Shown here piece after piece: positions 1-35,657 of a DNA stretch of 35,657 nt (position 1 is its first letter; every line of letters starts with the position of its first letter). The DNA comes from a virus. Taxonomy: Duplodnaviria > Heunggongvirae > Uroviricota > Caudoviricetes. Where the stretch lies: IMG/VR virus record IMGVR_UViG_2740892433_000005, positions 1 through 35,657 of that record; one strand, 5' to 3'. Below the pieces are notes generated by a model, which made no database searches, was not told the origin of the DNA, and saw only the letters and a program-made list of their open reading frames with translations. Made by a program: the position numbers and the translations under genes.

Positions 1-516
1 TCAGAGGTGCTGTTGGTGGCACTGCTCAGTTGATCCCCGGGCCAGATCATACGCGATTTTCACAGCCTTCGGCGTGGCAGCCTCAGTTTCTGATTGACTG
101 TCCGTGGCACTGCTCAGTTGTACGGTGCCTTTTGCCGTCAGCGAGGCAGCAGGCACTCCCGTTATCTGACTCCACGGGTGAGTGTGGCTGACGGGTGCCT
201 TGCCGGCTGCAAGGTCGTATGCAGCCTTGACGGCTTTTGGTGTGGCGGCCAGCGTTTCAGAGGTGCTGTTGGTGGCACTGCTCAGTTGGGTGAACCCCTT
301 AGCTGTCAGTGTCGCGTCCGGGTGGTTACGGGAACGTACGTGTTCAGCCAGTGACTGTGCGGCTTCCTCCGTTTTTTTCTTCAGCCATTTCGTCCTGTTT
401 GCCAGTTGCCGGGGGGCTCGATTTGATATCCCGTCAGCACCACCCAGAACCGGATCTGATGTCTCCAGTTGATAGATATTTTCTTCCCACTTTTCTGTTT
501 CATTCAGGTTTCCCAT
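1..516 (-). CDS. tail fiber protein, N-terminal part (gene continues past window start)
   Basis: Minus-strand ORF with ATG at 514-516, GGGAG 9 nt upstream, 2 nt after the stop of the preceding baseplate gene; two near-duplicate ~33-aa segments (TAKG..QLSSAT..SE..AATPKAVK.AYDLA) typical of fiber shafts; no stop before coordinate 1. Confidence 0.55.
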   Translation of the reverse strand: MGNLNETEKWEENIYQLETSDPVLGGADGISNRAPRQLANRTKWLKKKTEEAAQSLAEHVRSRNHPDATLTAKGFTQLSSATNSTSETLAATPKAVKAAYDLAAGKAPVSHTHPWSQITGVPAASLTAKGTVQLSSATDSQSETEAATPKAVKIAYDLARGSTEQCHQQHL

Positions 517-518
517 AA

Positions 519-1097
519 TCAACTGCTCCCGTGGTTATAACTGCCATCATGGATGGCGGTATTGTTATAGCGAATGGCCACAGACTGATACTCCAGGCTG
601 GCCAGATGGCAGCGGGCCGGTGCAAATGCAGCGAGCGTCTGACGCAGCATCGCGGCCTGATCGTTAGTAATGGGCTGTTTCAGAATAACGCGATAAACCG
701 CCCAGGCGGCTGCATCTCCATGAACAAACAGTCCGTTATAGCTGCGATTGCCGTCGTAACTGAGACGACCTGTGCCTTCAATCAGATCCACTTCACCAAA
801 GCCAAAACGGCGGATAACTTCCCGGATTGACCACGGCGTCCCTTTATACCGGTGCAGTTCGATGGCTGCTTTTATAAGCATGCGGCGAACATCGTCCGAT
901 TCCGCCAGCTCCCAGCCATCGCCAGACAGTGAGAACTGCTCGCCCAGCCATGGCAGCGCAGAACTGTCGACGATATCGACGAGAAAGACCATCAGTACGC
1001 TCAGGTCGATGTTATCCAGCCGCCCTGCCAGTCTTCCCAGCGTCCTGAGACTGATATCACCCTCAAGCGGTGGCGGGAGTTGTAATGGCTCAGTCAT
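519..1097 (-). CDS. baseplate/tail protein, P2 gpI-like (Mu gp48-like)
   Basis: ORF track 519..1109; ATG at 1097 overlaps the stop of the upstream gpJ-like gene; position immediately before the fiber gene and size match the gpI slot of P2/Mu baseplate modules. Confidence 0.55.
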   Translation of the reverse strand: MTEPLQLPPPLEGDISLRTLGRLAGRLDNIDLSVLMVFLVDIVDSSALPWLGEQFSLSGDGWELAESDDVRRMLIKAAIELHRYKGTPWSIREVIRRFGFGEVDLIEGTGRLSYDGNRSYNGLFVHGDAAAWAVYRVILKQPITNDQAAMLRQTLAAFAPARCHLASLEYQSVAIRYNNTAIHDGSYNHGSS

Positions 1098-2193
1098 CAG
1101 ACACTCCACTCATGTTAAGTGTGATCGCCGTACAGTTTGCCCATTCGTTTTCTGCCACCACCCTCAGTGCCGGTGTCACCAGTTCAACCTGGTACACCCC
1201 GGAAACGGACAATGCACTGATAATCTGGCTGGGGACAATATCACGCCCCAGCGTGGCGGCACGTGATGCCACCCAGTTCTGTATGGCGCTGTTAGCGGCA
1301 TCTTTTACAGACCTGGCATCCTGATCACGATAGATCGTAATCCTGGCTTCAATGGTGTAATCCACCTTCACTGGTGTTTTAGCCCGCACTGTATCAGTGA
1401 GTGGCCTGACTTTCTCATCAGAGCAGAAACTCTCTACCAGCGTGAGAACACCGCCGTCCGGCAGACCGGTACTGAGCAGCGGATACAGATCTACGGTCCC
1501 GGGAACCGGGGAAAGCACAGCAACATCGACAATGTTGGGATGGGCCTGCATGGCATGAAAGCGGTATGCGCCACGGCTTCCGGCATTGGTGAATGACTCC
1601 GGGGCCAGCCTGATACGCTCCCGGAGCCTGTCATCGTCTTCCTGTTCTGAACCGCCGGAACTGGCCGTCAGATTGCTCACCAGCAGGTCGACGTTATCAA
1701 TCTCATCGAGTAACTGACTGACCTGCGCAGGTTGCCAGCCGTTACCAGCGGTACCGGGTTCGGTACAGGTGGACGTGACATTGACCAGCAGCAATCCGGC
1801 CTTCAGTACCACATCTGTATCGGTGGCAAAAATAACGCTGTCGGAAGCGCTGACGCGGGTGCCTGCCGGGATCAGCACATCAATGGTCAGTGCCTCATCC
1901 ACAGAGAACTGAAGTGTGGTGGTGGCAGGCTGCGCGGCAAGGCGGTATACACCAACCAGTTCTCCGAGGTAATCAATCATCGGCTCTCGTGAAAAGGCGA
2001 CCAGATTCTGCTTTGCTGCCTCCTGTACCGCAACCCTGACCAGCATTTCGCGATAGGCCCACAGATCAATCAGCAGACGTTCTGCCTGTGCCGGGTACAG
2101 CGTTTTGCCGGTATCCGCTTCATACTTCGCAATCATTTCTGCCGTGATTTTGTCGGCATCGCGTTCAATAAAATCGGGTTCTGTCAGCGCCAT
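1090..2193 (-). CDS. baseplate protein J-like (Mu gp47-like)
   Basis: 367-aa ORF, ATG at 2193 with AGGAG upstream; size and position between gpW-like and gpI-like genes; N-terminus and length fit the baseplate J family. Confidence 0.65.
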   Translation of the reverse strand: MALTEPDFIERDADKITAEMIAKYEADTGKTLYPAQAERLLIDLWAYREMLVRVAVQEAAKQNLVAFSREPMIDYLGELVGVYRLAAQPATTTLQFSVDEALTIDVLIPAGTRVSASDSVIFATDTDVVLKAGLLLVNVTSTCTEPGTAGNGWQPAQVSQLLDEIDNVDLLVSNLTASSGGSEQEDDDRLRERIRLAPESFTNAGSRGAYRFHAMQAHPNIVDVAVLSPVPGTVDLYPLLSTGLPDGGVLTLVESFCSDEKVRPLTDTVRAKTPVKVDYTIEARITIYRDQDARSVKDAANSAIQNWVASRAATLGRDIVPSQIISALSVSGVYQVELVTPALRVVAENEWANCTAITLNMSGVSDD

Positions 2194-2531
2194 AGCAACT
2201 CCTGAGTCCGGGTCTGTCCGTCTGAGCCTTTCCAGCTCACCCGGAGCGTAAGATGTTCGCCGTCGACGGCGGGTTTAACTGACATAAGCTGGCAGCGGGG
2301 CTCCCAGCGTCGGATGGCATCGACGGATTCGCGCACCACATGCGGAATGGCCCGGTCTACAGGCCAGTCGATATAAAGATGCAGATTGCTGCCGAACTCC
2401 GGGCGATGCGGGTCGCTGCCGCGGGGAGTCCGCAGGATAATTTGAATCGCCTGCCGGATATCATCCAGCCCCCGGACAATTTCGCCGGGAGCCTGCAGGG
2501 TCGGTTGCCAGAATACTGAGGTTGTTTTCAT
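2184..2531 (-). CDS. baseplate wedge protein W-like (gp25/GPW lysozyme-like fold family)
   Basis: 115-aa ORF directly upstream of the J-like gene with 10-nt overlap; size and order (V-W-J-I) as in P2/Mu baseplate clusters. Confidence 0.6.
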   Translation of the reverse strand: MKTTSVFWQPTLQAPGEIVRGLDDIRQAIQIILRTPRGSDPHRPEFGSNLHLYIDWPVDRAIPHVVRESVDAIRRWEPRCQLMSVKPAVDGEHLTLRVSWKGSDGQTRTQELLWR

Positions 2532-2585
2532 GGGGGCAGTATTGCCCCCGTGCGGGAACGCTGATATTAAAGGCGTTTAAAAAGC

Positions 2586-3182
2586 TCAGTGGGAGTGGTG
2601 GCTGGAGTTTTCGCCATCAGACAACATACTGCCCGTGGCATGGGCATTCCCTTTAATCTCGATATTGCCATGGATGGTCGCGGTAACACCTTCACCACCA
2701 GAACCCGCCATGCCTCCTTCGTAAATCAGCTTACCCCTGACACGCAGATCTCCGGTAAGTTCGGTTTCCGGTGCGTCAATCGTGGCTTTCTGTGTTTTCA
2801 ATACCACATCAGCACCACACTCAATGACAATATGCTCAATGCCGCCCCGGATGATCAGAGTGTGCGTCTTCCGGTTGTAGCTGTACTCTGCACCATCAGC
2901 AAACCGGGTTCCCCGGATATTTTTGTCACTGAACGGTGGTTTATCGACGTCTGAATACACCGCGCCCAGAATAACACCATCCTCGCCGTTGGCATCGAGC
3001 AGCACCTCAACCTGCTCCCCCACGTCAGGGAGCCAGTAATCTTTGTTATCCTGGGTATTGCGCTGCAGCACGTTAAGCCAGTTTGTGCGCAGGTTATCGC
3101 ATTCAGGCAGACGAACGCGGGCCTGAACCCTGTCGGCATCAACGGCACTGACCGTACCGACCTGACGAGTGACACCAGTCAT
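2586..3182 (-). CDS. baseplate assembly/spike protein V-like (Mu gp45-like)
   Basis: 198-aa ORF; ATG at 3182 overlaps the stop of the gpD-like gene (ATGA); Gly-rich C-terminal region and size typical of gpV spike proteins. Confidence 0.65.
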   Translation of the reverse strand: MTGVTRQVGTVSAVDADRVQARVRLPECDNLRTNWLNVLQRNTQDNKDYWLPDVGEQVEVLLDANGEDGVILGAVYSDVDKPPFSDKNIRGTRFADGAEYSYNRKTHTLIIRGGIEHIVIECGADVVLKTQKATIDAPETELTGDLRVRGKLIYEGGMAGSGGEGVTATIHGNIEIKGNAHATGSMLSDGENSSHHSH

Positions 3183-4351
3183 TTTTTCTTCTCTCTTATT
3201 ACTGTGGACGTGCTGCCGTCCGGTTTATAGATGGTCAGCATCCGGGTTTTGCCGATTTTTTTACCTTTCTTCGCCTTGCCCTGTGTGATCGGCCCCCGTG
3301 CCACTTCCAGCTCTGTGGTGTAGCCGCTGTTACGGTCAAACGCATGGCGGGCAGTGGTTATGAGCCATGGCCCGGATAACTGCCCAAAACCCACCAGTTC
3401 AATTTTGTTGCCTGCTGTCAGTTGAGGTGTTCCCGTCAGCGTCAGGGAGCCGTTCTGCTGGTATTCGTTATGTCTGGCCAGTGCTGAATCCGCTTTAATC
3501 CGGGCACTGTCCGGGTCGCTGACGCGGCTGTTAACTTTAAGTGAGTCAGCGCTGGTAACCTTACCACCTTTGAGCTTTTTGTCGCTTTCACGGGTACCAC
3601 CATCAGCTTCGTAGACGATCAGTTTTTTACTGCTGCTTTTCTGGTGTTTTACCTTTGCAGATTTATAGACCCGGTTGATGGTGTCACGCAGGGAAAAGCG
3701 GGCCACATCCTGCGGTTTTAACTGCCTGACCGGCTCCTGACTGCGCAGTGTGGCCAGATGAGAAAAAATCAGCTGGTCACTGACCACTTTCACTGCATAA
3801 CCATACTCGCTGGCCAGCCGGCGCAGAAAACCCACGTCGGTTTCAGCATACTGGGTCACCCGGTCGATTCTGATGGACTCAATGCTGCCCACCAGTTTCA
3901 GCCGGTGCTTTCTGGCAATCCGCCCCGCAACAGCTGCCAGCGTGGTGTTCTCAAAACCACGACTGGTTTTAGTCCGCAGGGCACTGTTAACCGAGGTGGC
4001 CACCCCACGGATAGAAACAACGGAAGCGGGCGAACTCACTTCGATCTCGTCTATAGAGAACGTACCGCAGGACAGCAGCTTCTCGTCCTGATAGCCCATT
4101 TTCAGCGTCAGCGTGTCACCCTTGCCCGGATACCACTTATCCAGCCAGCGGCCATCGGTGTCGTCCAGCTCCACCTCAATGGTATCGGACTCATTTTTGA
4201 TGTTATCGCTCCAGGTCACACGGGTGACATAAGGCGCGATATCAGAGGTGATGTTTTTCTGCAGATACCACAGAGTGAACACCGGTGTCAGCACATCGCT
4301 GACGCCGGTTAACGCTGATGTGACTTGCGCAGTGCTGTTTATCTCAGCCAT
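3179..4351 (-). CDS. tail protein D-like / baseplate hub (Mu gp44 P-like)
   Basis: 390-aa ORF following the X-like gene; basic C-terminus; order U-X-D-V-W-J-I matches P2-type tail gene order. Confidence 0.6.
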   Translation of the reverse strand: MAEINSTAQVTSALTGVSDVLTPVFTLWYLQKNITSDIAPYVTRVTWSDNIKNESDTIEVELDDTDGRWLDKWYPGKGDTLTLKMGYQDEKLLSCGTFSIDEIEVSSPASVVSIRGVATSVNSALRTKTSRGFENTTLAAVAGRIARKHRLKLVGSIESIRIDRVTQYAETDVGFLRRLASEYGYAVKVVSDQLIFSHLATLRSQEPVRQLKPQDVARFSLRDTINRVYKSAKVKHQKSSSKKLIVYEADGGTRESDKKLKGGKVTSADSLKVNSRVSDPDSARIKADSALARHNEYQQNGSLTLTGTPQLTAGNKIELVGFGQLSGPWLITTARHAFDRNSGYTTELEVARGPITQGKAKKGKKIGKTRMLTIYKPDGSTSTVIREKKK

Positions 4352-4551
4352 GGGGCAATATCCTCTTCTGTACGGGCTTCTTCAGCCTCAATCACCGGGA
4401 TCAGTAACAACAGCCCGGAGGGCAGCACCGGCGTGATGGCCACGTGCGGATTGGCGGCAATAATCCGGGGATAGCCCAGCGGGTCACCGTAGTACTGCCA
4501 TGCCAGCGAATCCCAGCGCTCTCCGTCACGGGTAACATGTTCAAGAAACAT
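4339..4551 (-). CDS. tail protein X-like (small LysM-like tail protein)
   Basis: ~70-aa ORF; ATG at 4549-4551 shares one nt with the stop of the upstream gene (TGATG); position between U-like and D-like genes. Confidence 0.45.
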   Translation of the reverse strand: MFLEHVTRDGERWDSLAWQYYGDPLGYPRIIAANPHVAITPVLPSGLLLLIPVIEAEEARTEEDIAPWLR

Positions 4552-5435
4552 CACACACTCCTCGTCAGTATTCTGGCGGCCATTGCACTTAATCCCGGAG
4601 ACATGCGGTTGAATGCTGTTCCGACGGCGTTAAGCTGCCCGGAAACGGTATCCAGAGCACCTGCAATATTTCTTTTGTCCACACCACTCAGCGCAGACTG
4701 TGCCTGCTGTACATACGTGGCTGCTTCGCTGGCTGTTCTGGCCAGACTGATGGCATCGGGCATGGATTCAGAGAGTGCGTTAAACGCCGGAACACTTTTC
4801 CCCAGAGCCCCGGAGATATTACCCAGTCCGCTCATCAGCCCCGGCACACGGGTCAGTGCGACAACGGGGTTATCCTTCATTTTCTGTGTCACTCGAACGG
4901 CGCTGATAGTGGTCTGGAGTACAGACTGCGCCTGTTTCGCATAGTTGACGCCGTTGCGGATGAACTGCGCCACCCCGGAAGGTGAAGGAATGGCACCGGA
5001 GACCGCCCCGACACCCGGGAGCTTCGTGCGTATTGCCGGTGGTTGCAGAGGATTTTTCGGGTCACCGGTGTATTCCCGGAGAGACACGGTGGCACTGACA
5101 GCCAGCACGTTGCCGGTACTGTCAGTCTGCTCGCTGGTTGCAGTCACATCGGTAATCACGAACCAGCCGCGATAGTCACCGTTGCCGAAGACCAGCGCCA
5201 GTGCCTGATGGGCTTTCATGGCTGTTCGCAGTCTCGCCAGCTCCACATCGGGTACACAATAATGCTGATGGAAAACCAGAGTTATCTGGATTTCGTCCAG
5301 CCTGTCGCCGACGAACTGCAGGCCAGGCTTACCCCCGATGCGGGCATGCTCCGCATAATCGACGCCGAACGTGGCCTCGAAGCCGTCCCAGTAGGTAATC
5401 AGCTCAAACTCAATATCACCCAGTACGGCAAACAT
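4551..5435 (-). CDS. tail protein with P2 gpU-like / Mu N (DNA circulation) N-terminal region
   Basis: 294-aa ORF immediately downstream of the tape measure gene; N-terminal segment (..RIGGKPGLQFVGDRLDEIQITLVF..) resembles gpU-type tail proteins as I remember them. Confidence 0.45.
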   Translation of the reverse strand: MFAVLGDIEFELITYWDGFEATFGVDYAEHARIGGKPGLQFVGDRLDEIQITLVFHQHYCVPDVELARLRTAMKAHQALALVFGNGDYRGWFVITDVTATSEQTDSTGNVLAVSATVSLREYTGDPKNPLQPPAIRTKLPGVGAVSGAIPSPSGVAQFIRNGVNYAKQAQSVLQTTISAVRVTQKMKDNPVVALTRVPGLMSGLGNISGALGKSVPAFNALSESMPDAISLARTASEAATYVQQAQSALSGVDKRNIAGALDTVSGQLNAVGTAFNRMSPGLSAMAARILTRSV

Positions 5436-7033
5436 CAGCGGTACTCCTTACGTTGTTTCTGAGCCAGCAGACGCTCCAGCATTTTTTCCAGCTCATGCAG
5501 ACTCATATTCAGGGCACCAGTCAGTCCTGCAGGCGCTGTGGTTTCCCTGCCATTGAGGAAAAACTGAGGATTAAAGCTGACCTGGATACCACCAGACGTT
5601 CCACCGCCGGTTGCAGCTGCACCACGGCCTGAATATCCGGCAGCCAGGATTTCAGGCGAGGGGATACGGGGAACATCCGGTGTCATCTCATTTGCCAGAC
5701 GTTGCCCTGGTAAAATCGATGCCCGGGTGGAGAGCGGAATAACGGGCATGGAAGACAAACTATTGATTACGGCTCCGATCGCATTTTTAGCAGACGACAT
5801 AAACCCATTGATATCGGGCAACGGCATACTGAAGCGAACACCTGAAGTGTTATCCCGTATTTCTGGCCCCTGAATGCTCACGGGCATTCTGGGGAGCAGT
5901 TCACTGGCCATTCGCTGCCCGGCCAGAGCTGCAAGCGGAGTGGTCCGCTGCAGGCCAATGGCGGCCCCCTGCGCGATATTGTCACCAAAGCCCATAAACA
6001 CGCGGCTCGGCGAATGAATGCCCAGCTTTTCGCTGAACCAGCCACTGATGCTGTCACCCATTCCGGTTACACTGGATTTGAGCGACTCCCATTTGTTTTT
6101 GATACCGTTAATCAGACCGTCGACAAGATGGCCACCGAAGTCGGTGAACTTTGCCGGCAGATCAACACCAAGATATTTCAGCGCAGCTGCAAAGGCTTTA
6201 TAGAGCAGGCCTGCCGGCGACCAGTTAATCAGCAGCTTACCAGTTCCCGCGATACCGCCGTTAAAGGCTTCCTGAATGTCAGCCCAGCACTGTTTAAACC
6301 AGCTACTGATGCTGTCACCCATTCCGGTTACACTGGATTTGAGCGACCCCCATTTGTTTTTGATACCGTTAATCAGACCGTCGATAAGATGGCCACCGAA
6401 GTCGGTGAACTTTGCCGGCAGAGCAACGCCGAAATATTTCAGCGCAGCCGCAAAGGCTTTATAGAGCAGGCCTGCCGGCGACCAGTTAATCAGCAACTTA
6501 CCAATTCCCACAATTCCGCCGTTAAAGGCTTCCTGAATGTCAGCCCAGCGCTGTTTAAACCAGCTACTGATGCTGTCACCCATTCCGGTTACACTGGATT
6601 TGAGCGACCCCCATTTGTTTTTGATACCGTTAATCAGACCGTCGATAAGATGGCCACCGAAGTCGGTGAACTTTGCCGGCAGAGCAACGCCGAAATATTT
6701 CAGCGCAGCCGCAAAGGCTTTATAGAGCAGGCCTGCCGGCGACCAGTTAATCAGCAACTTACCAATTCCCACAATTCCGCCGTTAAAGGCTTCCTGAATG
6801 TCAGCCCAGCGCTGTTTAAACCAGCTACTGATGCTGTCACCCATTCCGGTTACACTGGATTTGAGCGACCCCCATTTGTTTTTGATACCGTTAATCAGAC
6901 CGTCGATAAGATGGCCACCGAAGTCGGTGAACTTTGCCGGCAGAGCAACGCCGAAATATTTCAGCGCAGCCGCAAAGGCTTTATAGAGCAGGCCTGCCGG
7001 CGACCAGTTAATCAGCAACTTACCAATTCCCAC
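5435..7033 (-). pseudogene. tail tape measure protein, C-terminal segment (out of frame with the N-terminal segment)
   Basis: 532-aa ORF made of 87-aa tandem repeat units followed by a unique C-terminus; same gene as 7012..9801 but in a different frame because of a 110-bp aberrant repeat unit at 7059-7168. Confidence 0.55.
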
Positions 7034-23255: not shown

Positions 23256-23257
23256 GA

Positions 23258-26179: not shown

Positions 26180-26184
26180 AAAAC

Positions 26185-26213
26185 TTGCTCTGTCTAAATT
26201 TTTAGACAATAAT
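26185..26213 (+). promoter_or_regulatory. candidate early promoter with operator palindrome in the spacer
   Basis: TTGCTC (26185-26190), 17-nt spacer, AATAAT (26208-26213); the spacer contains the perfect 16-bp palindrome GTCTAAATTTTTAGAC (26192-26207); a related half-site tctaaatt occurs at 26164-26171. Confidence 0.45.
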
Positions 26214-26260
26214 CTATCACACATAACGCAAACATCATTGCACCAAACAAGGAGACAACA

Positions 26261-26449: not shown

Positions 26450-26498
26450 AAAGATACAGCATACGAAAAAGATTATCACATATTGAAAAGGTGTGCAG

Positions 26499-26804: not shown

Positions 26805-26813
26805 GGAATAACT

Positions 26814-28092: not shown

Positions 28093-29882
28093 ATCCGGCG
28101 CTGACGCAACGGCTCGTCAGCATAGCCGCCGCCGCTGACGCAGCTATACACGGCGAAAAAGAGGCGGTATACCGGGCGGCGTGTGAAGAATTACAGATGT
28201 CACGCGCCACCCTGCTAAAAAAGCTTAAGGGTGTACGGATGAGCAAACCACGCAAACAGCGATCTGATGCAGGTAAAACGACACTGACTCACGATGAAAT
28301 GCTGACTATTTCTGGTGCATGGCTGGCATCACCTCGCCCTGGTAACGGCAAGAAAGGTTACAGCCTGGAGGATATTGTGGACGGTTTACGCGATAACGGT
28401 CTGATTATTGCTGGTCGAACCGATACTGAGACTGGAGAATTTTTCCCGCTATCAATTGACGCCATCAGTCGCGCCCTCCGCCAGCATCGTATGCATCCCG
28501 ACCAGTTACGGGCACCATCTCCTGCTCTGGAGCTGGCCAGCCTGCACCCAAACCACGTCTGGCAACTGGATGCGTCTATTTGCGTACTGTATTACCTCAA
28601 AAATCCGGCTAAAAAGGCTAAGGGGGACACCGGACTGCGCGTCATGAGCGCAGCAGAGTTCAACAAAAACAAACCCCGCAATTTGGACCGTATTGTCAAT
28701 GACAGGGTGTGGTCATTTGAAATCACCGACCATACCACAGGCTGGATTTACGTCGAGTACCGCTTCGGTGGTGAAAGCGCCGTCAACTTTCTGGAGGTGA
28801 TGATTAACGCCATGCAGGAACGCGGTGGTGCAGACGTGCTGCACGGCGTGCCGAAGATTCTGTTTACTGACCCGGGCTCTGCACTTGTTTCAGCCTCCCT
28901 GCTCAACATGTGCCGGGCGATGGGTATTTGTACCATTCAGCATAAGGCTCACAACGCCCGGGCCACCGGTTCGGTGGAAAAAGCCCGTGACATTATCGAA
29001 CGCAAGTTTGAAGGGGGGCTGCGTTTTCTGAGGGTGGATGATATTGATGAACTGAACCGGCTTGCACGTCTCTGGCGCATGAAGTTTAACCGCACAGCAA
29101 TTCACAGCCGCCACTGTATGTCGCGTACAGATGCGTGGTTGAGAATTACCGAAGAGCAACTGGTAAAAGCCCCGGCACCTGAAATCTGCAGGGAACTGGC
29201 CATCTCTTTACCTGAAGAACGCACTGTTACCGGCAAGTTGCGCGTACCTTTCAGAGGCAAGGAATACGATGTGTCTGATGTTCCTGGTGTATTTGTCGGT
29301 GACAAGGTGATGGTTGCCCGTAATCCCTGGTCAGATGAGGAGGCCAGAGTCGTTATCATCAATGATGAAGGCTTTGAAACCTTCCATGTTATTAACGCAA
29401 TACAGAAAGATGAACTCTGGCAGTACAGCACCAGTGCGCCGGTGATTGGAGAGGAGTACCGTCAGTTACCGGAGACCATTACCCGGACGAACCGCGATGA
29501 GGTGGAGCAACATACCTACGGCACTGCCAGCCGGGAAGAAACAGATGCGGCTAAAAAAGACAAAGCTCTGCCATTCGGTGGTCGCTTCAACCCTTATCTG
29601 GATATTGAGCGCGATGATCATCCTGCCTACCTGCCGAAGCGAGGCCAGGCCTCTGACGTACGCGGACCGCGCACTGAACAGCGTCCCATGACTCATGTGG
29701 AGGCCGCGAAAGCCCTGCGCGATAAGTTCAGCGCCGACGGCCTTACCTGGACGCCGGAACATTACCGCCAGTTAACGGCACAGTACCCGGACGGCGTACC
29801 GGAAGCTGCACTGGATGAAGTCATGGCCACGCTGACCACGCCGGCACGCAGCAGTGTTATCAGCATTGTTAACGGCAACTGA
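28089..29882 (+). CDS. DDE-type transposase (integrase-core, rve-like)
   Basis: 597 aa; N-terminal HTH-like region; candidate catalytic residues in ..HVWQLDASI.., ..ILFTDPGSA.. and a Glu ~35 residues further on, the D-D-35-E spacing of retroviral-integrase-type transposases; followed by an ATPase gene as in Mu A/B and Tn552-type pairs. Confidence 0.7.
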   Translation: MNPALTQRLVSIAAAADAAIHGEKEAVYRAACEELQMSRATLLKKLKGVRMSKPRKQRSDAGKTTLTHDEMLTISGAWLASPRPGNGKKGYSLEDIVDGLRDNGLIIAGRTDTETGEFFPLSIDAISRALRQHRMHPDQLRAPSPALELASLHPNHVWQLDASICVLYYLKNPAKKAKGDTGLRVMSAAEFNKNKPRNLDRIVNDRVWSFEITDHTTGWIYVEYRFGGESAVNFLEVMINAMQERGGADVLHGVPKILFTDPGSALVSASLLNMCRAMGICTIQHKAHNARATGSVEKARDIIERKFEGGLRFLRVDDIDELNRLARLWRMKFNRTAIHSRHCMSRTDAWLRITEEQLVKAPAPEICRELAISLPEERTVTGKLRVPFRGKEYDVSDVPGVFVGDKVMVARNPWSDEEARVVIINDEGFETFHVINAIQKDELWQYSTSAPVIGEEYRQLPETITRTNRDEVEQHTYGTASREETDAAKKDKALPFGGRFNPYLDIERDDHPAYLPKRGQASDVRGPRTEQRPMTHVEAAKALRDKFSADGLTWTPEHYRQLTAQYPDGVPEAALDEVMATLTTPARSSVISIVNGN

Positions 29883-29892
29883 GGAGGAAAAC

Positions 29893-31059
29893 ATGCTGGT
29901 ACTGAAGCAGCAACTGAAAGAGGCCCGTATCCCACAGGCGGTGGTGGCGAGAGCTGTCGATGTTTCTGAGGCCACGCTGGCCCAGATTGTGAATCATAAC
30001 GCGTGGCCCCGCACCAGCCCCGGAGAAGTGCGCCGGCGTCTTGCGTCCTGGCTGGAAAGTCAGGGGATTGATACAACGAAGAGTTTTGATGCTGTACAGG
30101 GCGCAGCCACGCCCCGTACAGCGGGTACCACAGATAAAACGAGCCTCAGTGAGGAAGAGAATATGTTACTCAAAAAACAGGTGTTATTTCCAGCAACCAA
30201 AAAAGCGTTTGGTCTTTTCCGTGACCCGTTCGCCGATGAAGCCATGCAGGGTTCTGATGATGTGTTCACCACCCCGGACATTCGCTACGTGCGTGAGGCG
30301 TTGTACCAGACAGCCCGTCATGGTGGGTTTATGGCCGTCATCGGTGAGTCCGGTGCGGGTAAATCCACGCTGCGCCGCGACCTGACTGAACGTATCAACC
30401 GCGAGAATGCGCCGGTAATTGTTATCGAGCCATACATCATCGCTATGGAAGACAACGATGTGAAAGGGAAAACCCTGAAGGCAGCAGCGATTGCCGAAGC
30501 CATTATCAGTACCATCGCACCACTGGAAAGCATCAGACGCAGTCAGGACGCCCGTTTTCGCCAGTTGCATCGCGTCCTGAAAGACAGCAGCCAGGCGGGG
30601 TTCAGCCACGTTCTGGTGATTGAGGAGGCCCACAGTCTGCCCATTCCGACACTGAAACACCTCAAACGCTTTTTTGAGCTGGAGTCCGGTTTCAAAAAAC
30701 TGCTGTCCATCGTGCTGATTGGCCAGCCGGAACTGGCGACAAAACTGTCTGAACGCAATATGGAAGTCCGTGAAGTCGTTCAGCGCTGTGAGGTGGTCGA
30801 ACTTCTGCCTCTGGACAATAACCTTGAAGAATTTCTGACGTTCAAACTGCAACGGGCCGGTAAACAGCTGACGGACATTATGGACGCCGGTGCAGTGGAT
30901 GCCATACGTGCCCGCCTGAGCAATCCGGGAAGTCACCGTAAAAATATGGTCAGCCTGCTGTATCCGCTGGCCGTCAGTAACCTGGTAATAGCCGCCATGA
31001 ATCTGGCCGCTGAAATCGGGGTTCCACAGGTCAACGCTGACGTTGTCAAAGGGGTTTAA
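29893..31059 (+). CDS. transposition ATPase (MuB-like, AAA+)
   Basis: ATG at 29893 with GAGGAGG upstream; N-terminal HTH-like segment then Walker A ..GESGAGKST.. and Walker B-like ..HVLVIEEAH..; immediately downstream of the transposase. Confidence 0.7.
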   Translation: MLVLKQQLKEARIPQAVVARAVDVSEATLAQIVNHNAWPRTSPGEVRRRLASWLESQGIDTTKSFDAVQGAATPRTAGTTDKTSLSEEENMLLKKQVLFPATKKAFGLFRDPFADEAMQGSDDVFTTPDIRYVREALYQTARHGGFMAVIGESGAGKSTLRRDLTERINRENAPVIVIEPYIIAMEDNDVKGKTLKAAAIAEAIISTIAPLESIRRSQDARFRQLHRVLKDSSQAGFSHVLVIEEAHSLPIPTLKHLKRFFELESGFKKLLSIVLIGQPELATKLSERNMEVREVVQRCEVVELLPLDNNLEEFLTFKLQRAGKQLTDIMDAGAVDAIRARLSNPGSHRKNMVSLLYPLAVSNLVIAAMNLAAEIGVPQVNADVVKGV

Positions 31060-31061: not shown

Positions 31062-31331
31062 ATGAAATCCACCACAGGTATCAACCAGCAAATCAGCAAA
31101 GTGCAGTCAGCCATTATGGCGCTTAAGGCGACGAACACGGATGTACAAAGCATCACCATCAGGGGTAACAAACCTGTCATCCGCGTTTCCCGGAGTGCGC
31201 ATTGCATGCGCATGCTTGAGCAGGGAAAGGCCTGTTATCTGTATACCGGACATGACCACAGGGGATATTTCCGTCAGGGCGTTTTCGAACTGCACGGCTG
31301 TCGCGTCGTGTGGCCGGAATCTTTGTGGTAA
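31062..31331 (+). CDS. hypothetical early protein
   Basis: 89-aa ORF starting 3 nt after the ATPase stop, AAAGGGG upstream. Confidence 0.35.
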   Translation: MKSTTGINQQISKVQSAIMALKATNTDVQSITIRGNKPVIRVSRSAHCMRMLEQGKACYLYTGHDHRGYFRQGVFELHGCRVVWPESLW

Positions 31332-31358
31332 TCAGCACAACTGGAGAAATCATAAAAA

Positions 31359-31889
31359 ATGGCAAAAAGTACAAAAGGTGCAAAACGTATCAAGGCCGCA
31401 GCAGCACTCTGGGTGCCGGGGACACGTGAAGAGGTCATTGAGGGAATCAGACTACTCGGTGACGCACAACGTGAACTGGTCAGGGCTGAAACAGAAATGA
31501 ATGACGCCATTGGCGATATCACCGCACGTTATGCCCCGCTCACCGAGAGCCTGAAAAAACGCATGGCCGAACTGCAGTCCGGTATTCAGACATGGTGTGA
31601 GGCACACCGTGATGAACTGACCGGCAACGGGAAGGTGAAGTTCGCTAACCTCACCACCGGCGAGGTGCAGTGGCGAAACCGTCCGCCGTCAGTCAGCATT
31701 CGCGGGGCGGATAATGTCATTGAACTGCTGAGACGTCTGGGGCTTGAGCGCTTTATTCGTGTAAAGGAGGAAATAAATAAAGATGCCATTCTGAATGAAA
31801 AAGAGGCTGTGAAAAATATTCCCGGTATTACCATAAAAAGTGATATTGAGGATTTTTCAATAATTCCTTTTGAGCAGGATGTGCAGTAA
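31359..31889 (+). CDS. gam: host-nuclease inhibitor Gam (Mu Gam-like DNA end-binding protein)
   Basis: 176 aa; long collinear similarity to Mu Gam as I remember it (MAK..KRIK.AAA..VP..R..VI..I...GD.QRE..R.ETEMNDAI..IT....P......WCEA.RDELT..GKVK.ANL.TG.V.WR.RPPSVSIRG.D.V.E.L.RLGL.RFIR.K.EINK.AIL.E..AV....GIT.KS.IEDFSIIPFEQ). Confidence 0.85.
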   Translation: MAKSTKGAKRIKAAAALWVPGTREEVIEGIRLLGDAQRELVRAETEMNDAIGDITARYAPLTESLKKRMAELQSGIQTWCEAHRDELTGNGKVKFANLTTGEVQWRNRPPSVSIRGADNVIELLRRLGLERFIRVKEEINKDAILNEKEAVKNIPGITIKSDIEDFSIIPFEQDVQ

Positions 31890-31931
31890 ACACACCACGT
31901 TAATTATTTAATAAAAACATTTTCTTTTTTA

Positions 31932-31968
31932 TTCCGGCGTCAGCGCCGCGGGCTTCTGCACGCCGGAA
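31932..31968 (+). other. stem-loop in the gam-downstream intergenic region
   Basis: ttccggcgt (31932-31940) and acgccggaa (31960-31968) perfect 9-bp inverted repeat with 19-nt loop, preceded by a T-run and followed by GAGGAG and the next ATG. Confidence 0.3.
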
Positions 31969-31986
31969 ACAGAGGAGAATTAAATC

Positions 31987-32181
31987 ATGATATTTAAATG
32001 TATTCAGTGCGAGAGGGATATAACAGCCCTGCGTTTTCACAGCGCCATCGCCGTGATGTCCGGTAAATACCACATCCCTGCGGTACGCGTCACCCTGGTC
32101 TGCCCGTACTGCAGCCAGCATTTTTCGGCAGACGTGCCCGTCATGGAATTCTCCCGCCCTGACAGGGAGGACTCGCAATGA
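31987..32181 (+). CDS. small Cys-rich protein (zinc-ribbon-like CxxC...CxxC)
   Basis: 64-aa ORF with C-x2-C (CIQC) and C-x2-C (CPYC) pairs about 38 residues apart; GAGGAG RBS. Confidence 0.4.
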   Translation: MIFKCIQCERDITALRFHSAIAVMSGKYHIPAVRVTLVCPYCSQHFSADVPVMEFSRPDREDSQ

Positions 32182-32450
32182 TTACCCCACAGGAAGCACG
32201 ACAGCGCACCCGAACCCTTGTTGAACACTATGTCAACGAGTGTGAATGCCGCGACCTCACCGATGTGAAGCACGTCCTGACGGCGCTAATCAGCATTGCC
32301 GCTCAGGCCATTGTGGCGACCAACGGAAAGGCGGCTGCCCTGCAGGTACTGGTGAACACACTCACCCACACGGCAGAGCATGAGGTGCCGTACCGGATGG
32401 AAACCACTGCAGAAGGCGGCCTGCACATCACCGTCAGCCGGAAGCACTGA
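32178..32450 (+). CDS. hypothetical early protein
   Basis: 90-aa ORF with ATGA overlap to the upstream gene. Confidence 0.35.
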   Translation: MITPQEARQRTRTLVEHYVNECECRDLTDVKHVLTALISIAAQAIVATNGKAAALQVLVNTLTHTAEHEVPYRMETTAEGGLHITVSRKH

Positions 32451-32459
32451 GGGCGCGGC

Positions 32460-32756
32460 ATGACACGGAACACCATACTCACCCGCACCGCCCTCTACCG
32501 TCTGGCCCTGCAGCGTTTCGGGCCGGACGCACAGGCCCTGAAACTGACAGAAGAGGCCGCTGAACTGGCGGCCAGTGCTGCCCGCAATCTGAACGGACAG
32601 GGCAGCGAAAGCGACCTCGCGGCAGAGCTGGCAGACGTGGAAATCATGACAGAGCAATTGCGCCTTCAGGGGATGGACCGGCTGATTGACTTCCACAAAC
32701 AGAAAAAACTGGAACGTCTGGCTGCACGACTGGGCGTGATTTACACGAACGAGTAA
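32460..32756 (+). CDS. MazG-like nucleotide pyrophosphohydrolase domain protein (tentative)
   Basis: 98-aa ORF with ..TEEAAELAAS.. and ..AAELADVEIMTEQL.. acidic helix motifs resembling the EExxE/ExxD pattern of small MazG-type enzymes. Confidence 0.4.
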   Translation: MTRNTILTRTALYRLALQRFGPDAQALKLTEEAAELAASAARNLNGQGSESDLAAELADVEIMTEQLRLQGMDRLIDFHKQKKLERLAARLGVIYTNE

Positions 32757-32770
32757 CCGGGAGGCATTCA

Positions 32771-32986
32771 ATGGCTGACATACTCAGTGAAATCACCGCA
32801 TGGATACTGATTCTTACTGGCCTGGCGACATGCCTCAGTGCGGGGGCAGCCCTGGCTGCCCTGCTGATGCACATAACAACACAGTGGTTATGGGAAAAGC
32901 TTAAAGCAGCATACAGCCTGAAAGAGCTGTCCGACGCTGTCCGGGCATGGAAACGGCAGAAAAATACCGGAGATACAGAACAATGA
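32771..32986 (+). CDS. small membrane protein
   Basis: 71-aa ORF, GGGAGG RBS; one hydrophobic helix (ITAWILILTGLATCLSAGAALAALLM). Confidence 0.35.
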   Translation: MADILSEITAWILILTGLATCLSAGAALAALLMHITTQWLWEKLKAAYSLKELSDAVRAWKRQKNTGDTEQ

Positions 32987-33666
32987 CAGACCAGAATAAA
33001 CACATTGAGAAACTGAAAAAGTTGCTGGCGCTGGCCGCATCCGGCAACCCGCACGAGGCCGCTCTGGCACTGCGCCGAGCCCGTAAACTGATGGATGTTC
33101 ACGGCATCACACATTCCGACATTGCTATGAGTGATATTGATGAAACCATCAGTCATTACTGGCCGACAGGCAGTCTCCGTCCACCGCGCTACATGCTGGG
33201 CCTGATGAACATCATCCGCGAGGCATTTGGTGTTAACTCCATCATTCACCCCGGCACGCATCCGTCTGTGGGGTTCTACGGTAACCGGGAACGAGCGGCA
33301 CTGGCTGCGTACACCTGGGAAGTGCTGGTCCGCCAGCTGAAAAAGGCGCGTCAGCAGTATATCAGCGCACAGAACAAAAGAATAAAAAACGCCACCCGTA
33401 CCAGCCGTGGAGACCAGTTTGCTGAAGGCTGGGTACTGGCCGTTATCAGTGAAATACAGTCCTTTGCCCTGACCGATGATGAGCGTGAACTGATGCAACA
33501 GTGGCTGGAACATAAATACCCGCAGACGCAAACCACCAGGGCGCGTAAACCGGGAAGAAGCCGCAATGGCGACGCCTCGCGCTATGCGGGGTTTCGTGAA
33601 GGGCAGAACGTCAGACTGCACCGCCCGGTCAGTGGGCAGGAACAACAGAAACTGGAGGCCAGATGA
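32983..33666 (+). CDS. conserved phage early protein (DUF2786-like N-terminus)
   Basis: ORF track 32947..33666; ATG at 32983 overlaps the upstream stop (ATGA); N-terminal ..KHIEKLKKLLALAASGNPHEAALALRRARKLM.. matches the motif I associate with this prophage protein family. Confidence 0.4.
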   Translation: MTDQNKHIEKLKKLLALAASGNPHEAALALRRARKLMDVHGITHSDIAMSDIDETISHYWPTGSLRPPRYMLGLMNIIREAFGVNSIIHPGTHPSVGFYGNRERAALAAYTWEVLVRQLKKARQQYISAQNKRIKNATRTSRGDQFAEGWVLAVISEIQSFALTDDERELMQQWLEHKYPQTQTTRARKPGRSRNGDASRYAGFREGQNVRLHRPVSGQEQQKLEAR

Positions 33667-33893
33667 TTACGCTATCAGGTAAAAGCCGGAAATTAAAAGC
33701 CTGCCGAATATCTGCCAGATACCTTTTTGCCCGCGCCTTTTTTAAGAACGTCAGGCCGGGGATCACAATTGGTGTTATTGCCGGACGCGAACAGGTTGAA
33801 AAATACATGTCAGGTGCATGGTGGAATAACGACCCTGTCATTGCTGCCCGTAATATTCATATCAGTTGGGGGGATATTCAGAATGACTACTGA
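33663..33893 (+). CDS. hypothetical early protein
   Basis: 76-aa basic ORF with ATGA overlap to the upstream gene. Confidence 0.3.
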   Translation: MITLSGKSRKLKACRISARYLFARAFFKNVRPGITIGVIAGREQVEKYMSGAWWNNDPVIAARNIHISWGDIQNDY

Positions 33894-34089
33894 AACCATT
33901 GTCTGTTTTCTTTTCTGGTATATGTACGCAGGATCATGCAGCGCAAGACTTCATCGTTCCCTGGGCTATGGCAGGCACTACGACACCGCGCATTACATCC
34001 TGTACATGACCGCCGTCATGTTGTTCTGGCCAGTCACCCTGCCAGCTGCAACCGACATTGTTGCCGACAGACTGAAAAAAAGGAGATGA
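33883..34089 (+). CDS. small hydrophobic protein
   Basis: In-frame ATG at 33883 within ORF 33727..34089, overlapping the upstream stop; product is largely hydrophobic. Confidence 0.3.
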   Translation: MTTETIVCFLFWYMYAGSCSARLHRSLGYGRHYDTAHYILYMTAVMLFWPVTLPAATDIVADRLKKRR

Positions 34090-34090
34090 T

Positions 34091-34540
34091 ATGCAGAAAA
34101 AACGCCTGATACAGCTTATCCATATTGCCCGTAATGAACTGGGTATGGATGAAGACACCTACCGCCAGATGTTACAGGGGCTGACCGGTAAAGCCTCAAC
34201 CAAAGGAATGGATACCACACAACTAAACTGCGTGCTGGAATCCATGAAAAAGAAAGGCTTTCGCGTTAAACCAGCCAGAAAAGCCAGCTCCGGTTTACCG
34301 CTTGATAACCATCCGCAGTCCAGGAAAATTCGTGCGCTATGGCTTGAAATGGCTGCTGCCGGCATTGTTCGTGACCGTTCAGAAAATGCATTAGCGAGGT
34401 GGATCAAGCGGGAAACGGGCATCAGCGCCCTGCGCTGGCTCAGTACTGAACAGGCAAGCAGTGTTATTGAGAAACTGAAGAAGTGGCAGCGCAGAGCTGC
34501 GGGAGTCAAACATGAGCGACCTGAATCAGTTTCGAAGTAA
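34091..34540 (+). CDS. gemA: GemA-like protein (Mu gp16 family)
   Basis: 149 aa; AGGAG RBS; N-terminal ..LIQLIHIARNELGMDEDTYRQMLQGLTGKAS.. fits the Mu gp16/GemA pattern as remembered; located just upstream of the Mor-like gene as in Mu. Confidence 0.55.
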   Translation: MQKKRLIQLIHIARNELGMDEDTYRQMLQGLTGKASTKGMDTTQLNCVLESMKKKGFRVKPARKASSGLPLDNHPQSRKIRALWLEMAAAGIVRDRSENALARWIKRETGISALRWLSTEQASSVIEKLKKWQRRAAGVKHERPESVSK

Positions 34541-34910
34541 GGGGCCGGAACTCCTGGTGGAACTGGCACAGCATACCTCTGAGACCGTTCGCGAGATTAT
34601 TGATATTGAGCCCGAAGTTGCCGACCAGATTGGTCAGGCCGTCGCGAACCGAATGATGCAGGTCTGGGGCGGGCAAAACGTTTATTTTCCTATGGGCATG
34701 GTATGGAAGGTCAGTCAGCGCGACCGGGAAATCTTCAGGGAGTTTAACGGACGCAACCACCACGAACTGGCCCGCAAGTTTGGTGTTTCGCTTCAGTGGG
34801 TCTACAGCGTGGTTAAGCGGGTCAGAAAAGAAGAACTGGATCGGATGCAGGGCAGGTTGTTTGATGAAGATCTGCCAGAGGAGACGAAAGACGTTAACAA
34901 ATCCAGATAA
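34512..34910 (+). CDS. mor: Mor/C-family transcriptional activator
   Basis: 132 aa; C-terminal ..GGQNVYFPMG....RDREIFREFNGRNHHELARKFGVSLQWVYSVVKRVRK.. matches the Mor/C HTH region pattern (..GGQ.VYIP.G......R...I...FNGRN...L...YGV....VY..IRR.R.); last gene of the rightward operon. Confidence 0.7.
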   Translation: MSDLNQFRSKGPELLVELAQHTSETVREIIDIEPEVADQIGQAVANRMMQVWGGQNVYFPMGMVWKVSQRDREIFREFNGRNHHELARKFGVSLQWVYSVVKRVRKEELDRMQGRLFDEDLPEETKDVNKSR

Positions 34911-34952
34911 TTCCTGCTTGTTAAAGTCCTTTCAAAAATCTCCTTATTGTAT

Positions 34953-34987
34953 AAAAGCACGGTAGACCCCTTACCGTGCTTTTTTTA
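34953..34987 (+). terminator. rho-independent terminator after the Mor-like gene
   Basis: agcacggta (34956-34964) and taccgtgct (34972-34980) 9-bp perfect stem, 7-nt loop, followed by TTTTTT (34981-34986); 46 nt after the stop codon. Confidence 0.7.
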
Positions 34988-35024
34988 TGCTCTCTCTTTA
35001 GTATTCAGGATGCAGGGAGAAAAT

Positions 35025-35657
35025 ATGTTTGACGTTTCGTTGTTAAATCTGCCATGGGCAACACTGGTGACCCTGACCAGTGGCTATATTGGGTATTTTA
35101 TTGCGAATGTGGGACTGAAGGATCACCACAAGCCCATTGAGGTGACTTTTTCTTCGCTGATTTTTGGCCTGACAGCAATGATGGCTTACCAGGCTGTTAT
35201 GTGGGCAGGTCTGAATGCCTGGCTGGCAACACCACCAGCACTTCTGTGTGCCGTTACATGCGGTGCGTGGTGGCGCAGGTACGGTCGCAAATGGATGTAC
35301 AGATTACTGTGGAATAATGATATTTCATGGTCTGACGATACCAGCTCAGCATGGCAGGCAATGTTTGATCAAACAGGCTTCAGCGTTACCGAGGTCAGAG
35401 TGATTCTTCGCGATGGTTCCGGTATGATGTCACGACTGCCAGGGAACTTTGAAGAGTGGCCTAACGGTCCGTTTACCCTGGGGAATAAAGGCGATATGGT
35501 TCTTTACGTCACGCACAGCAGCCCTTCAGGCAGTAACGAATGGGAAGAGTATAAAGGCGTGGTTGATAAGTACTGGGGAGCTCTGGCAACCTATATTCCA
35601 GCAGATCAGATTGCCAGAGTGGAGATCAGGCGCGTTCGTGCGACGAACGATGAATGA
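35025..35657 (+). CDS. membrane protein of unknown function (3 predicted N-terminal TM helices plus soluble C-terminal domain)
   Basis: ATG at 35025 with AGGGAG 8 nt upstream; hydrophobic segments in the first ~90 residues; stop codon is the last three bases of the window. Confidence 0.5.
   Translation: MFDVSLLNLPWATLVTLTSGYIGYFIANVGLKDHHKPIEVTFSSLIFGLTAMMAYQAVMWAGLNAWLATPPALLCAVTCGAWWRRYGRKWMYRLLWNNDISWSDDTSSAWQAMFDQTGFSVTEVRVILRDGSGMMSRLPGNFEEWPNGPFTLGNKGDMVLYVTHSSPSGSNEWEEYKGVVDKYWGALATYIPADQIARVEIRRVRATNDE

Follow-up and report, generated by a model that had tools for sequence, protein, structure and literature searches.

An Escherichia coli prophage best explained as a BcepMu-type transposable myovirus, with a single Mor/C-family activator and four candidate late promoters

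Gene content and organization of the window

We analysed a 35,657-nucleotide stretch of viral DNA (IMG/VR record IMGVR_UViG_2740892433_000005, positions 1 to 35,657; hereafter the window), which an earlier note, made from the sequence alone, had described as a Mu-like prophage with divergent early and late blocks and an added Dam-class methyltransferase. We are highly confident that the window as a whole is best explained as the bulk of a BcepMu-type transposable myovirus prophage of Escherichia coli. It is an ordinary member of an already described and common phage group and its novelty is low; the set of candidate late promoters and the 6-bp target duplication described below are the only points that might add something new. 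The main value of the analysis lies in the correct classification, in which the features that look odd beside Mu are the normal design of a described group.

Genes were assigned by Pfam scans of the called open reading frames (ORFs), by PHROG and PADLOC matches and by tblastn. The ORF listing and the base composition divided the window into a minus-strand block (1-23608) and a mainly plus-strand block (23741 to the end), and the ORF listing and Pfam scans bore out both the gene content and the opposed strand layout of the earlier description. The minus-strand late block begins with a lysis cassette (21881-23608) showing 61-64% identity to BcepMu gp22 and gp21, which consists of a holin (23258-23608; Pfam Holin_2-3, 4e-40), an SLT endolysin (22515-23255; Pfam SLT) and an Rz-like spanin (ORF 21881-22633, likely 21881-22492; PHROG, 5.6e-91), with an Rz1-like lipoprotein ORF (about 21919-22206, lipobox LSAC) embedded in the spanin gene. 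Two small genes homologous to BcepMu gp26 and gp25 (21247-21884) are followed by a Mu gp27-like small terminase (20702-21250; Pfam Phage_Mu_Gp27, 1.6e-50), the large terminase (19182-20705), a Mu portal (17686-19182; Pfam Portal_Mu, 2.9e-90), a Mu F-like protein (16884-17732; Pfam Phage_Mu_F) and a G-like protein (16423-16881; Pfam Phage_tail_S), and these head and packaging genes (16423-21250) showed 44-63% identity to BcepMu gp31-gp27. Further along the same strand, the protease/scaffold gene equivalent to Mu I/Z (15093-16208), the major head protein (14125-15078), a DUF2190/cement protein (13777-14115; Pfam Phage_cement_2), a Mu gp36-like protein (13329-13775; Pfam Phage_Mu_Gp36, 1.3e-37) and the Gp37 head completion protein (12865-13329; Pfam Gp37, 4.9e-61) were 44-53% identical to BcepMu gp37-gp32.

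The tail genes come next, on the same strand. Beyond a small gp38-like protein (12614-12868) lie the tail sheath FI (11197-12624; Pfam Phage_sheath_1/1C) and the tail tube FII (10676-11197; Pfam Phage_tube, 2.9e-53), with 67-76% identity to BcepMu gp40 and gp39, and a small DUF7739 protein (10392-10673). A P2 E-like tail assembly chaperone (9959-10294; Pfam Phage_TAC_7, 5.5e-21) is overlapped by an ORF at the position of the E' frameshift extension (9877-10134), and the BcepMu annotation has an equivalent slippage pair, gp42/gp43. The tape measure gene (5435-9801; Pfam PhageMin_Tail) is present as two ORFs (7012-9801 and 5435-7033). After it come gpU (4551-5435; Pfam Phage_P2_GpU), gpX (4339-4554; Pfam Phage_tail_X), a gpD-like hub (3179-4351; Pfam Phage_GPD) and the gpV spike (2586-3182; Pfam Phage_base_V), which were 46-56% identical to BcepMu gp48-gp45, and then the gpW/gp25-like (2184-2531; Pfam GPW_gp25), gpJ-like (1090-2193; Pfam Baseplate_J, 9e-69) and P2 gpI-like (519-1109; Pfam Tail_P2_I) baseplate genes, which showed 55-63% identity to BcepMu gp51, gp50 and gp49. 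The block ends in the constant N-terminal part of a tail fibre gene with Phage_fiber_2 repeats (1-522; Pfam PF03406, 1.5e-38). The virion is thereby predicted to have a head and packaging machinery of the Mu type and a contractile tail of the P2 type.

The plus-strand early block opens with a Ner/Cro-like helix-turn-helix (HTH) protein (26261-26449; 49% identity to BcepMu gp16) and a winged-HTH protein (26493-26804; 33% identity to BcepMu gp12), and these first two regulators (26261-26804) matched Pfam HTH_31 and HTH_IclR/HTH_24. Two proteins of 310 aa (26814-27746) and 117 aa (27739-28092), belonging to PHROG families without assigned function (4623 and 5446), precede a DDE (rve) transposase of the BcepMu / B3-D3112 type (28089-29882; PHROG, 4e-115; weak Pfam rve), which was 53% identical to BcepMu gp09 and about 50% identical to the transposases of Pseudomonas transposable phages. 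The adjoining ExeA-family AAA ATPase (29854-31059, likely start 29893; Pfam AAA_22, 1e-19) was 59% identical to BcepMu gp08. Downstream are a small protein (31062-31331), Gam (31359-31889; Pfam Phage_Mu_Gam, 6.4e-40), a MazG-like pyrophosphatase domain (32460-32756) and a DUF2786/DUF7168 protein (32947-33666; Pfam DUF2786, DUF7168); further small proteins fill 31062-34089, and a match to PHROG 2245 was found in this early stretch. GemA (34091-34540; Pfam GemA, 5e-39) and a Mor/C-family activator (34512-34910; Pfam Mor PF08765, 2.8e-43, the whole model covered) are the last genes of the early operon.

Comparison with BcepMu, Mu and other phages

To place the prophage, the 54 window proteins were compared with BcepMu (NC_005882) by tblastn, and the matches formed a strictly collinear, mirror-image map. 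All of the late genes, from tail fibre to holin, matched BcepMu at 44-76% identity, and early matches linked the Ner-like protein to gp16, the HTH protein to gp12, the transposase to gp09, the ATPase to gp08, GemA to gp02 (44%) and Mor to gp01. The original description of BcepMu is said to be that of Summer et al. in 2004. The traits that Lavigne et al. (2009) gave for BcepMu-like phages are two opposed gene clusters with lysogeny control at their interface, a Tn552/IS1604-type transposase, terminal CA, a holin-endolysin-Rz/Rz1 cassette, a Mu-related TerL and a P2-like tail (PMC2771037; also PMC2628397, PMC2920897). In the window we found the opposed clusters with lysogeny control at the interface (the divergence of the repressor and Ner-like genes, 26179-26261), an rve transposase unrelated to MuA with an adjacent ExeA-type ATPase, a holin/SLT endolysin/Rz-Rz1 cassette, before whose holin an accessory cassette is inserted in the enterobacterial clade, and a Mu-related terminase and head followed by a P2-related tail, collinear with BcepMu gp27-gp52. 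The TG...CA ends, terminal repeats and varied insertion sites were found in near-identical prophages, outside the window. Because the published traits match exactly, the BcepMu interpretation, which the earlier note had offered tentatively, is supported by both the protein map and the published group layout (PMC2771037). It follows from the BcepMu type of this prophage that the back-to-back layout, the single late activator and the extra methylase are normal for the group and are not marks of a rearranged Mu.

The proposed Mu-like gene content held in part. Against Mu (NC_000929), tblastn identities were 62% for Gam, 49% for TerL, 48% for F, 36% for GemA, 30% for Mor, 29% for G and 27% for the portal, with weaker matches for part of baseplate J (33%), for gpV (26% over 72 aa, E = 0.01) and for a short fibre segment. 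However, the transposase and the ATPase gave no tblastn match to MuA or MuB, and they are predicted to be functional analogues of these proteins, not homologs. The window and Mu thus share the nature of a transposable temperate myovirus and homologous Gam, GemA, Mor/C, TerL, portal, F and G proteins, whereas the window differs from Mu in the inversion of its early block relative to the late block, in its unrelated transposase and ATPase, in having one activator and a P2-type tail, and in the absence of mom/com, in place of which a D12 methylase is found. This combination raises the question of whether an assembly error or a one-off rearrangement has inverted the early region of what is otherwise a standard collinear Mu genome. 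Although the resemblance of Gam, GemA, Mor, TerL, the portal and F to Mu and the inverted early block would fit such a scenario, the identical layout is present in BcepMu, in Escherichia phage PhiKM, in Klebsiella phage KP12 and in the prophages of ZH063 and SCU-105, and about 640 complete genomes contain related sequence. In addition, the transposase and ATPase lack similarity to MuA and MuB, most of the tail genes are of the P2 type, and nucleotide similarity to Mu is only about 1.6%. Synteny with these five genomes, virion-derived as well as genomic, rules out an assembly inversion of a Mu genome, the outcome that the earlier note had named as its own refutation, and we regard the scenario as a whole as vanishingly improbable.

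A BcepMu-type prophage need not belong to the genus of BcepMu. Approximate nucleotide-level similarity to the window, taken as identity multiplied by coverage, was about 87% for PhiKM, 63% for KP12, 19% for BcepMu and 1.6% for Mu; in the case of BcepMu, 28.6% of the window aligned at 67.7% identity by blastn. The ICTV genus convention is about 70% nucleotide identity over the genome. The window lacks the genome-wide similarity to BcepMu that strict membership of Bcepmuvirus calls for, and because this similarity is only about 19% it is not of the same genus as BcepMu by sequence; it fits the wider BcepMu-like group and probably belongs in a separate genus. Its make-up also departs from that of Muvirus, whose collinear order is c-ner-A-B...mor-C-lys-head-tail-gin-mom, in that the early block is inverted and there is no MuA, MuB or second Mor/C gene.

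Like the window, BcepMu has an early operon ending in GemA-Mor at the genome end, a repressor/Ner-like switch by the lysis cassette, a Mu-type head, a P2-type tail, one Mor/C gene and a dyad element before its late operons. The enterobacterial clade adds to this plan Gam, the D12 methylase cassette and different end cargo, and in the relatives, outside the window, an invertible tail-fibre segment with an invertase that BcepMu lacks (PMC2771037, PMC2628397); conversely, the window is without the BcepMu acyltransferase gp53, HU-like gene and SSB-like gene. By megablast, identity to PhiKM (PQ738613) was about 98% in the late region and 95% in most of the early region, and the Klebsiella "phage KP12" clone KP12_2 matched at about 86%, while the ZH063 prophage was 96.8-98.6% identical to the window. 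PhiKM, the ZH063 prophage and KP12 belong to the same phage lineage as the window, which differs from the PhiKM/ZH063 lineage in its immunity/transposase module (about 25.8-29.6 kb), in an expanded, frame-broken tape measure gene and in a truncated fibre gene. A more distant comparison is offered by the Pseudomonas B3/D3112 group (JBD25, JD18, H72 and others), whose transposase is about 50% identical over its full length and in which a short piece of Gam DNA matches as well; the members of this group are siphoviruses, with genes laid out collinearly as in Mu.

A single activator and four candidate late promoters

Mu uses two Mor/C paralogs, and only one gene of this family had been visible in the window. 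That observation stands: six-frame tblastn searches in which Mu Mor, Mu C and the Mor of the window itself served as queries found only 34512-34910, the next best matches having E > 0.2, and the Pfam scans of the called ORFs likewise gave no second paralog. The encoded protein showed 56% identity to BcepMu gp01, with a near-identical HTH region, compared with 30% to Mu Mor and 35% to Mu C. BcepMu also has one Mor/C gene, which lies at the genome end.

The late-strand intergenic gaps of the window were found to share an element composed of a TTAA-N6-TTAA(A/T)A dyad, a spacing of exactly 22 nt and the sequence A(A/T)(A/G)CTG. Four candidate late promoters, all on the minus strand, carry it: P_lys upstream of the holin gene (23635-23677; TTAA-N6-TTAAAA, 22 nt, ATGCTG), P_I upstream of the protease/scaffold gene (16238-16280; CTAA-N6-TTAAAA, 22 nt, AAACTG), P_E upstream of the tail chaperone gene (10321-10363; TTAA-N6-TTAATA, 22 nt, ATACTG) and P_W upstream of the gpW gene (2537-2579; TTAA-N6-TTAATA, 22 nt, ATACTG). 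The composite pattern occurs exactly four times in the window, always on the late strand and always between genes, and it did not occur in any of 100 shuffled sequences; the bare dyad was found only at those four sites, against 0.04 expected. As the pattern was derived from the window itself, the fair test is provided by other genomes. KP12 and SCU-105 carry the element at the orthologous sites. In BcepMu, whose proteins show about 50% identity to those of the window, an identical 16-mer, TAAAGCCGATTAAAAG, stands before the holin gene (11486) and before gp32 (18813), with an expectation of 0.01, and a one-mismatch copy precedes gp49 and a degenerate copy the chaperone gene. In addition, the P_I dyad forms a conserved island in the three-way alignment. 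For specialists, the interest of this set is that four candidate Mor-type late promoters are conserved across very distant hosts.

The geometry of the element is close to that known from Mu. Taking xAWRCT as the -10 hexamer, the centre of the dyad falls at about -42.5, and the imperfect 16-bp dyads bound by Mu Mor and C are centred at -43.5, in promoters that have a -10 but no -35 element (PMC4287176, PMC2582627). The candidate late promoters of the window would share with those of Mu an activator dyad close to -43 and the lack of a -35 element, and two of the candidates correspond in place to Mu promoters, one ahead of the lysis genes and one ahead of the gene for the head protease. In Mu, TAAAGCCGGTTAATCC occurs in the region immediately downstream of mor.

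A hairpin with a T-rich tail (16342-16379, minus strand) lies between the G-like gene and P_I. It was present in both the minimum free energy and the centroid folds of a 101-nt segment (minimum free energy -26.2 kcal/mol, z = -2.1), and its 16-nt core, TTTATAAAGGCTTTAC, does not vary between the window, KP12 and BcepMu, whereas the outer stem differs. The hairpin probably terminates the first late operon; in Mu, the strong gyrase site occupies the corresponding place between G and I.

These findings suggest a two-tier cascade in which the single activator would directly turn on four late operons. The repressor-like and Ner/Cro-like genes face each other across an operator-like repeat, and derepression would release the rightward early operon, in which regulators, transposase, ATPase, Gam and GemA are followed finally by the single Mor/C activator beside the genome end. 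The activator most likely binds the four TTAA-N6-TTAA dyads, about 43 bp upstream of leftward promoters without a -35 element, and the proposed late operons would run from lysis to G, from protease to tube, from chaperone to spike and from baseplate to fibre. With a single activator at four late promoters, a single step would turn on the late genes, in place of the Mor-then-C relay of Mu.

Prophage ends and target duplication

Neither prophage end lies within the window; the full prophage would measure about 38-40 kb, with both ends just outside. On the left, the missing part amounts to about 3.8-4.3 kb in ZH063 and SCU-105 and comprises the remainder of the tail fibre together with an invertible segment and the invertase; in the relatives this left arm carries alternative fibre and assembly genes and a Gin-type invertase. 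On the right, the last 0.35 kb or so is missing. The complete relatives are single insertions of 38.2-38.5 kb with one pair of 5'-TG...CA-3' ends. A common left terminus, 5'-TGATGCGCCGCGCGATAAATG, was found in three independent insertions, in ssuB (ZH063), next to php (TUM13754) and in a sulfatase-like gene (SCU-105). The left end begins with TGATGCG and the right termini read ...ATCA or ...TTCA, and GATAAAT repeats at both ends resemble the GATATTT repeats of BcepMu. The insertions are flanked by a 6-bp direct repeat, which is GTTTGC in SCU-105 (unambiguous) and TCTCGA in ZH063. The 5-bp target duplication that the earlier note expected to find was thus not borne out in these relatives, which differ in this respect from Mu with its 5 bp; the 6-bp duplications are a second point of interest for specialists. 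Integration and replication would proceed by DDE transposition, carried out by the rve transposase with the ExeA-family AAA ATPase.

The ends also bear on a reading in which two elements lie side by side, one of them a P2-like prophage or tailocin and the other the remnant of a Mu-like element. In favour of this reading, the tail module resembles P2 in sequence as well as in gene order, and the head and early modules are Mu-like. However, one pair of TG...CA ends and one 6-bp duplication bracket the whole 38 kb in ZH063 and SCU-105, the virion-derived PhiKM and KP12 contain both halves, a P2 integrase, replication or capsid module is absent, and one and the same element recurs in the four candidate late promoters of both the "Mu-type" and the "P2-type" parts. 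Since only one pair of ends and one target duplication are seen in the complete relatives, we reject this reading as very improbable and retain that of one BcepMu-type prophage.

Several points nevertheless weigh against a BcepMu-type prophage with the transcription programme proposed above. First, since the promoter pattern comes from the window, only the sites in BcepMu and KP12 are independent, and the fourth BcepMu site is degenerate. Second, the transposition signatures are drawn from relatives because neither end is inside the window. Third, the tape measure and tail fibre genes carry lesions, and unless these are assembly errors this copy may not form infectious particles.

The control region and the methyltransferase cassette

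The earlier note had placed the switch between the two blocks at 23.6-26.3 kb, which was right about the divergence of the blocks but coarse. The late operon starts at 23608 and is followed by a plus-strand cassette (23741-25709), a minus-strand repressor-like gene and the early operon, which starts at 26261. The cassette encodes proteins of 247 aa (23741-24484) and 74 aa (24538-24762), both in PHROG families without assigned function (3787 and 4490), and a D12-class N6-adenine DNA methyltransferase (24945-25709; Pfam MethyltransfD12 PF02086, 1e-27; PADLOC MTase_II, 5.6e-112). A perfect 11-bp hairpin (25716-25740) between the convergent methylase and repressor genes is likely a bidirectional terminator. 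The repressor-like HTH protein (25826-26179, minus strand) gave weak Pfam matches to Phage_AlpA/Phage_CI_repr and a PHROG match to a transcriptional regulator; its gene occupies the position of BcepMu gp17, and the RefSeq label in SCU-105 is "AlpA family phage regulatory protein". Candidate operators are formed by two copies of the 23-nt repeat TCTAAATTaaTgGACAtaAAaCT, 30 bp apart, that lie between the repressor-like gene and the ner-like gene diverging from it (26163-26215), and a promoter-like site lies at 26173-26200 on the plus strand. A scan of 23.5-26.6 kb for sigma-70 promoters and terminators gave matches no more numerous than in shuffled sequence.

The "Dam-class" label of the methyltransferase was apt insofar as its translation has the DPPY motif of the D12 catalytic core, but its relationship to E. 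coli Dam and DpnM is a distant one (E 1e-14 to 1e-17). It is 99% identical to the methylase of the ZH063 prophage and lies at the position of M.EcoMIV in EC958 Phi2; it is M.EcoMIV, an already named enzyme (PMC4659465). In the EC958 lysogen, Forde et al. found M.EcoMIV to be poorly transcribed and no motif to be assignable, and up to 2015 the recognition sites of close homologs had not been determined (PMC4659465). The description of the enzyme as an addition was correct with respect to the named phages, as tblastn found no match in BcepMu or Mu; among BcepMu-type phages, however, the methylase is present only in the enterobacterial ones and is a fixed feature of that clade. Methylases of about 65% identity occur in unrelated temperate phages, including VP882, phiE125, phi1026b and KS9. 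The methylase is part of a horizontally acquired accessory cassette, variable and located between holin and repressor.

The dyad of the lysis promoter is palindromic, and a mirrored -10-like sequence, CAGAAT (23702-23707, plus strand), stands at the same spacing on its other side. This sequence lies 34 nt upstream of the first start codon of the cassette, that of the 247-aa gene, with a GAGGAG ribosome-binding site in between. Because of this mirrored hexamer the cassette may, speculatively, be a late, activator-dependent function. The most likely role of the methylase would be to modify phage DNA in the lytic phase and so protect it from restriction. A wider proposal combines a two-tier programme extending from Burkholderia to E. 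coli with a bidirectional lysis dyad that drives the methylase as a late anti-restriction function, a convergent counterpart of the C-dependent mom of Mu; we consider this combination doubtful.

A swapped immunity and transposase module

SCU-105 is the best match among complete genomes, with 100% identity confined to 25750-29900 and 97.7% elsewhere. Of the 5,426 complete E. coli genomes, only 4 covered at least 80% of this immunity/transposase module. Identity is 63-64% between its transposase and the common allele found in PhiKM and ZH063, which is itself closer to BcepMu gp09 than is the allele of the window, and the left prophage end is identical among prophages whose transposase alleles are only 64% identical. 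The right arm of the window is 98.6% identical to ZH063. The last 90 or so residues of the transposase match the common allele at 82-100% and adjoin an ATPase gene with 99-100% identity. The right breakpoint of the module lies inside the transposase gene, so that these residues agree with the common allele and have remained linked to the ATPase, which hints that the transposase tail may be the part that contacts the ATPase, as in MuA. A module swap with a breakpoint inside the transposase gene is of interest to specialists.

Lesions in the tape measure and tail fibre genes

The tape measure gene contains 261-bp (87-aa) tandem repeats, found by Tandem Repeats Finder as arrays at 6036-7092 and 7103-7985. 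It is 1,154 bp longer than the intact SCU-105 gene (1,070 aa) owing to a tandem duplication that is not a multiple of three, and the duplication breaks the frame at about 7012-7103 and gives rise to the two ORFs. No complete E. coli genome has the junction CCGGCAGG|TGGGGGGCTG as one contiguous sequence, and a search for this junction gave no match among the species-representative genomes or in IMG/VR. Tape measure length varies among relatives, with 821 aa in KP12 and 983 aa in TUM13754, and the PhiKM gene is interrupted by a sequencing gap. The tape measure protein sets tail length, and copy-number variation of an 87-residue repeat within it may interest specialists. In the tail fibre gene, a net deletion of 44 nt in the Phage_fiber_2 repeats relative to ZH063, SCU-105 and TUM13754 causes a frameshift and creates a stop codon at positions 1-3; it is apparently at this artificial end of the gene that the window was cut. 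Either the repeats were misassembled or this copy cannot build tails.

The two lesions raise the possibility that this copy is a defective, decaying prophage that may still transpose and lyse its host without building tails. The split of the tape measure gene by a duplication whose junction is absent from other complete genomes, the premature stop in the tail fibre gene and the presence of both genes in relatives in a form consistent with function all point in this direction. However, both lesions lie in repetitive DNA, where assemblies often err, and the other compared genes align over their full length with the counterparts in relatives or are allelic variants. Decay of this copy is accordingly a serious possibility, though not one that we regard as probable.

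Distribution, cargo gene and database records

Related sequence was found in 632-676 of the 5,426 complete E. coli genomes (about 12%), many of them ST131, and the group is thus common in E. coli, including this pandemic lineage. The copy in the ST131 genome of ZH063 sits in ssuB, at about 1.02-1.06 Mb, and corresponds to prophage Phi2 of the ST131 reference strain EC958, whose invertible tail-fibre segment and orphan methylase M.EcoMIV have already been described (PMC4134206, PMC4659465).

At the right edge of the window, an end-proximal cargo gene (34947-35657, plus strand, likely start about 35025) encodes a predicted membrane protein that matched PHROG 12870 (9.6e-134) and no Pfam or PADLOC model. 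This gene lies inside the ZH063 prophage, before the right end, and is absent from PhiKM; the corresponding region of SCU-105 aligns only partly, at 82%, and a query that included the gene (33800-35657) was covered to at least 80% in 115 complete genomes. A role in defence was considered for the cargo genes without assigned function and was set aside, as they gave no PADLOC match and matched only PHROG families without known function.

Two of the public records deserve comment. The PhiKM record, which NCBI places under Bcepmuvirus, is circularly permuted and opened at the small terminase gene, and a host-like "Fe2+ ABC transporter permease" fragment (19738-20771) links its two true ends. Clone KP12_2 of KP12 is filed under Vequintavirinae, yet its genome is that of a BcepMu-type transposable phage. 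Finally, the whole window contains GATC 98 times, whereas base composition predicts about 137 occurrences; this mild depletion agrees with the under-representation of GATC reported for the EC958 prophages (PMC4659465).

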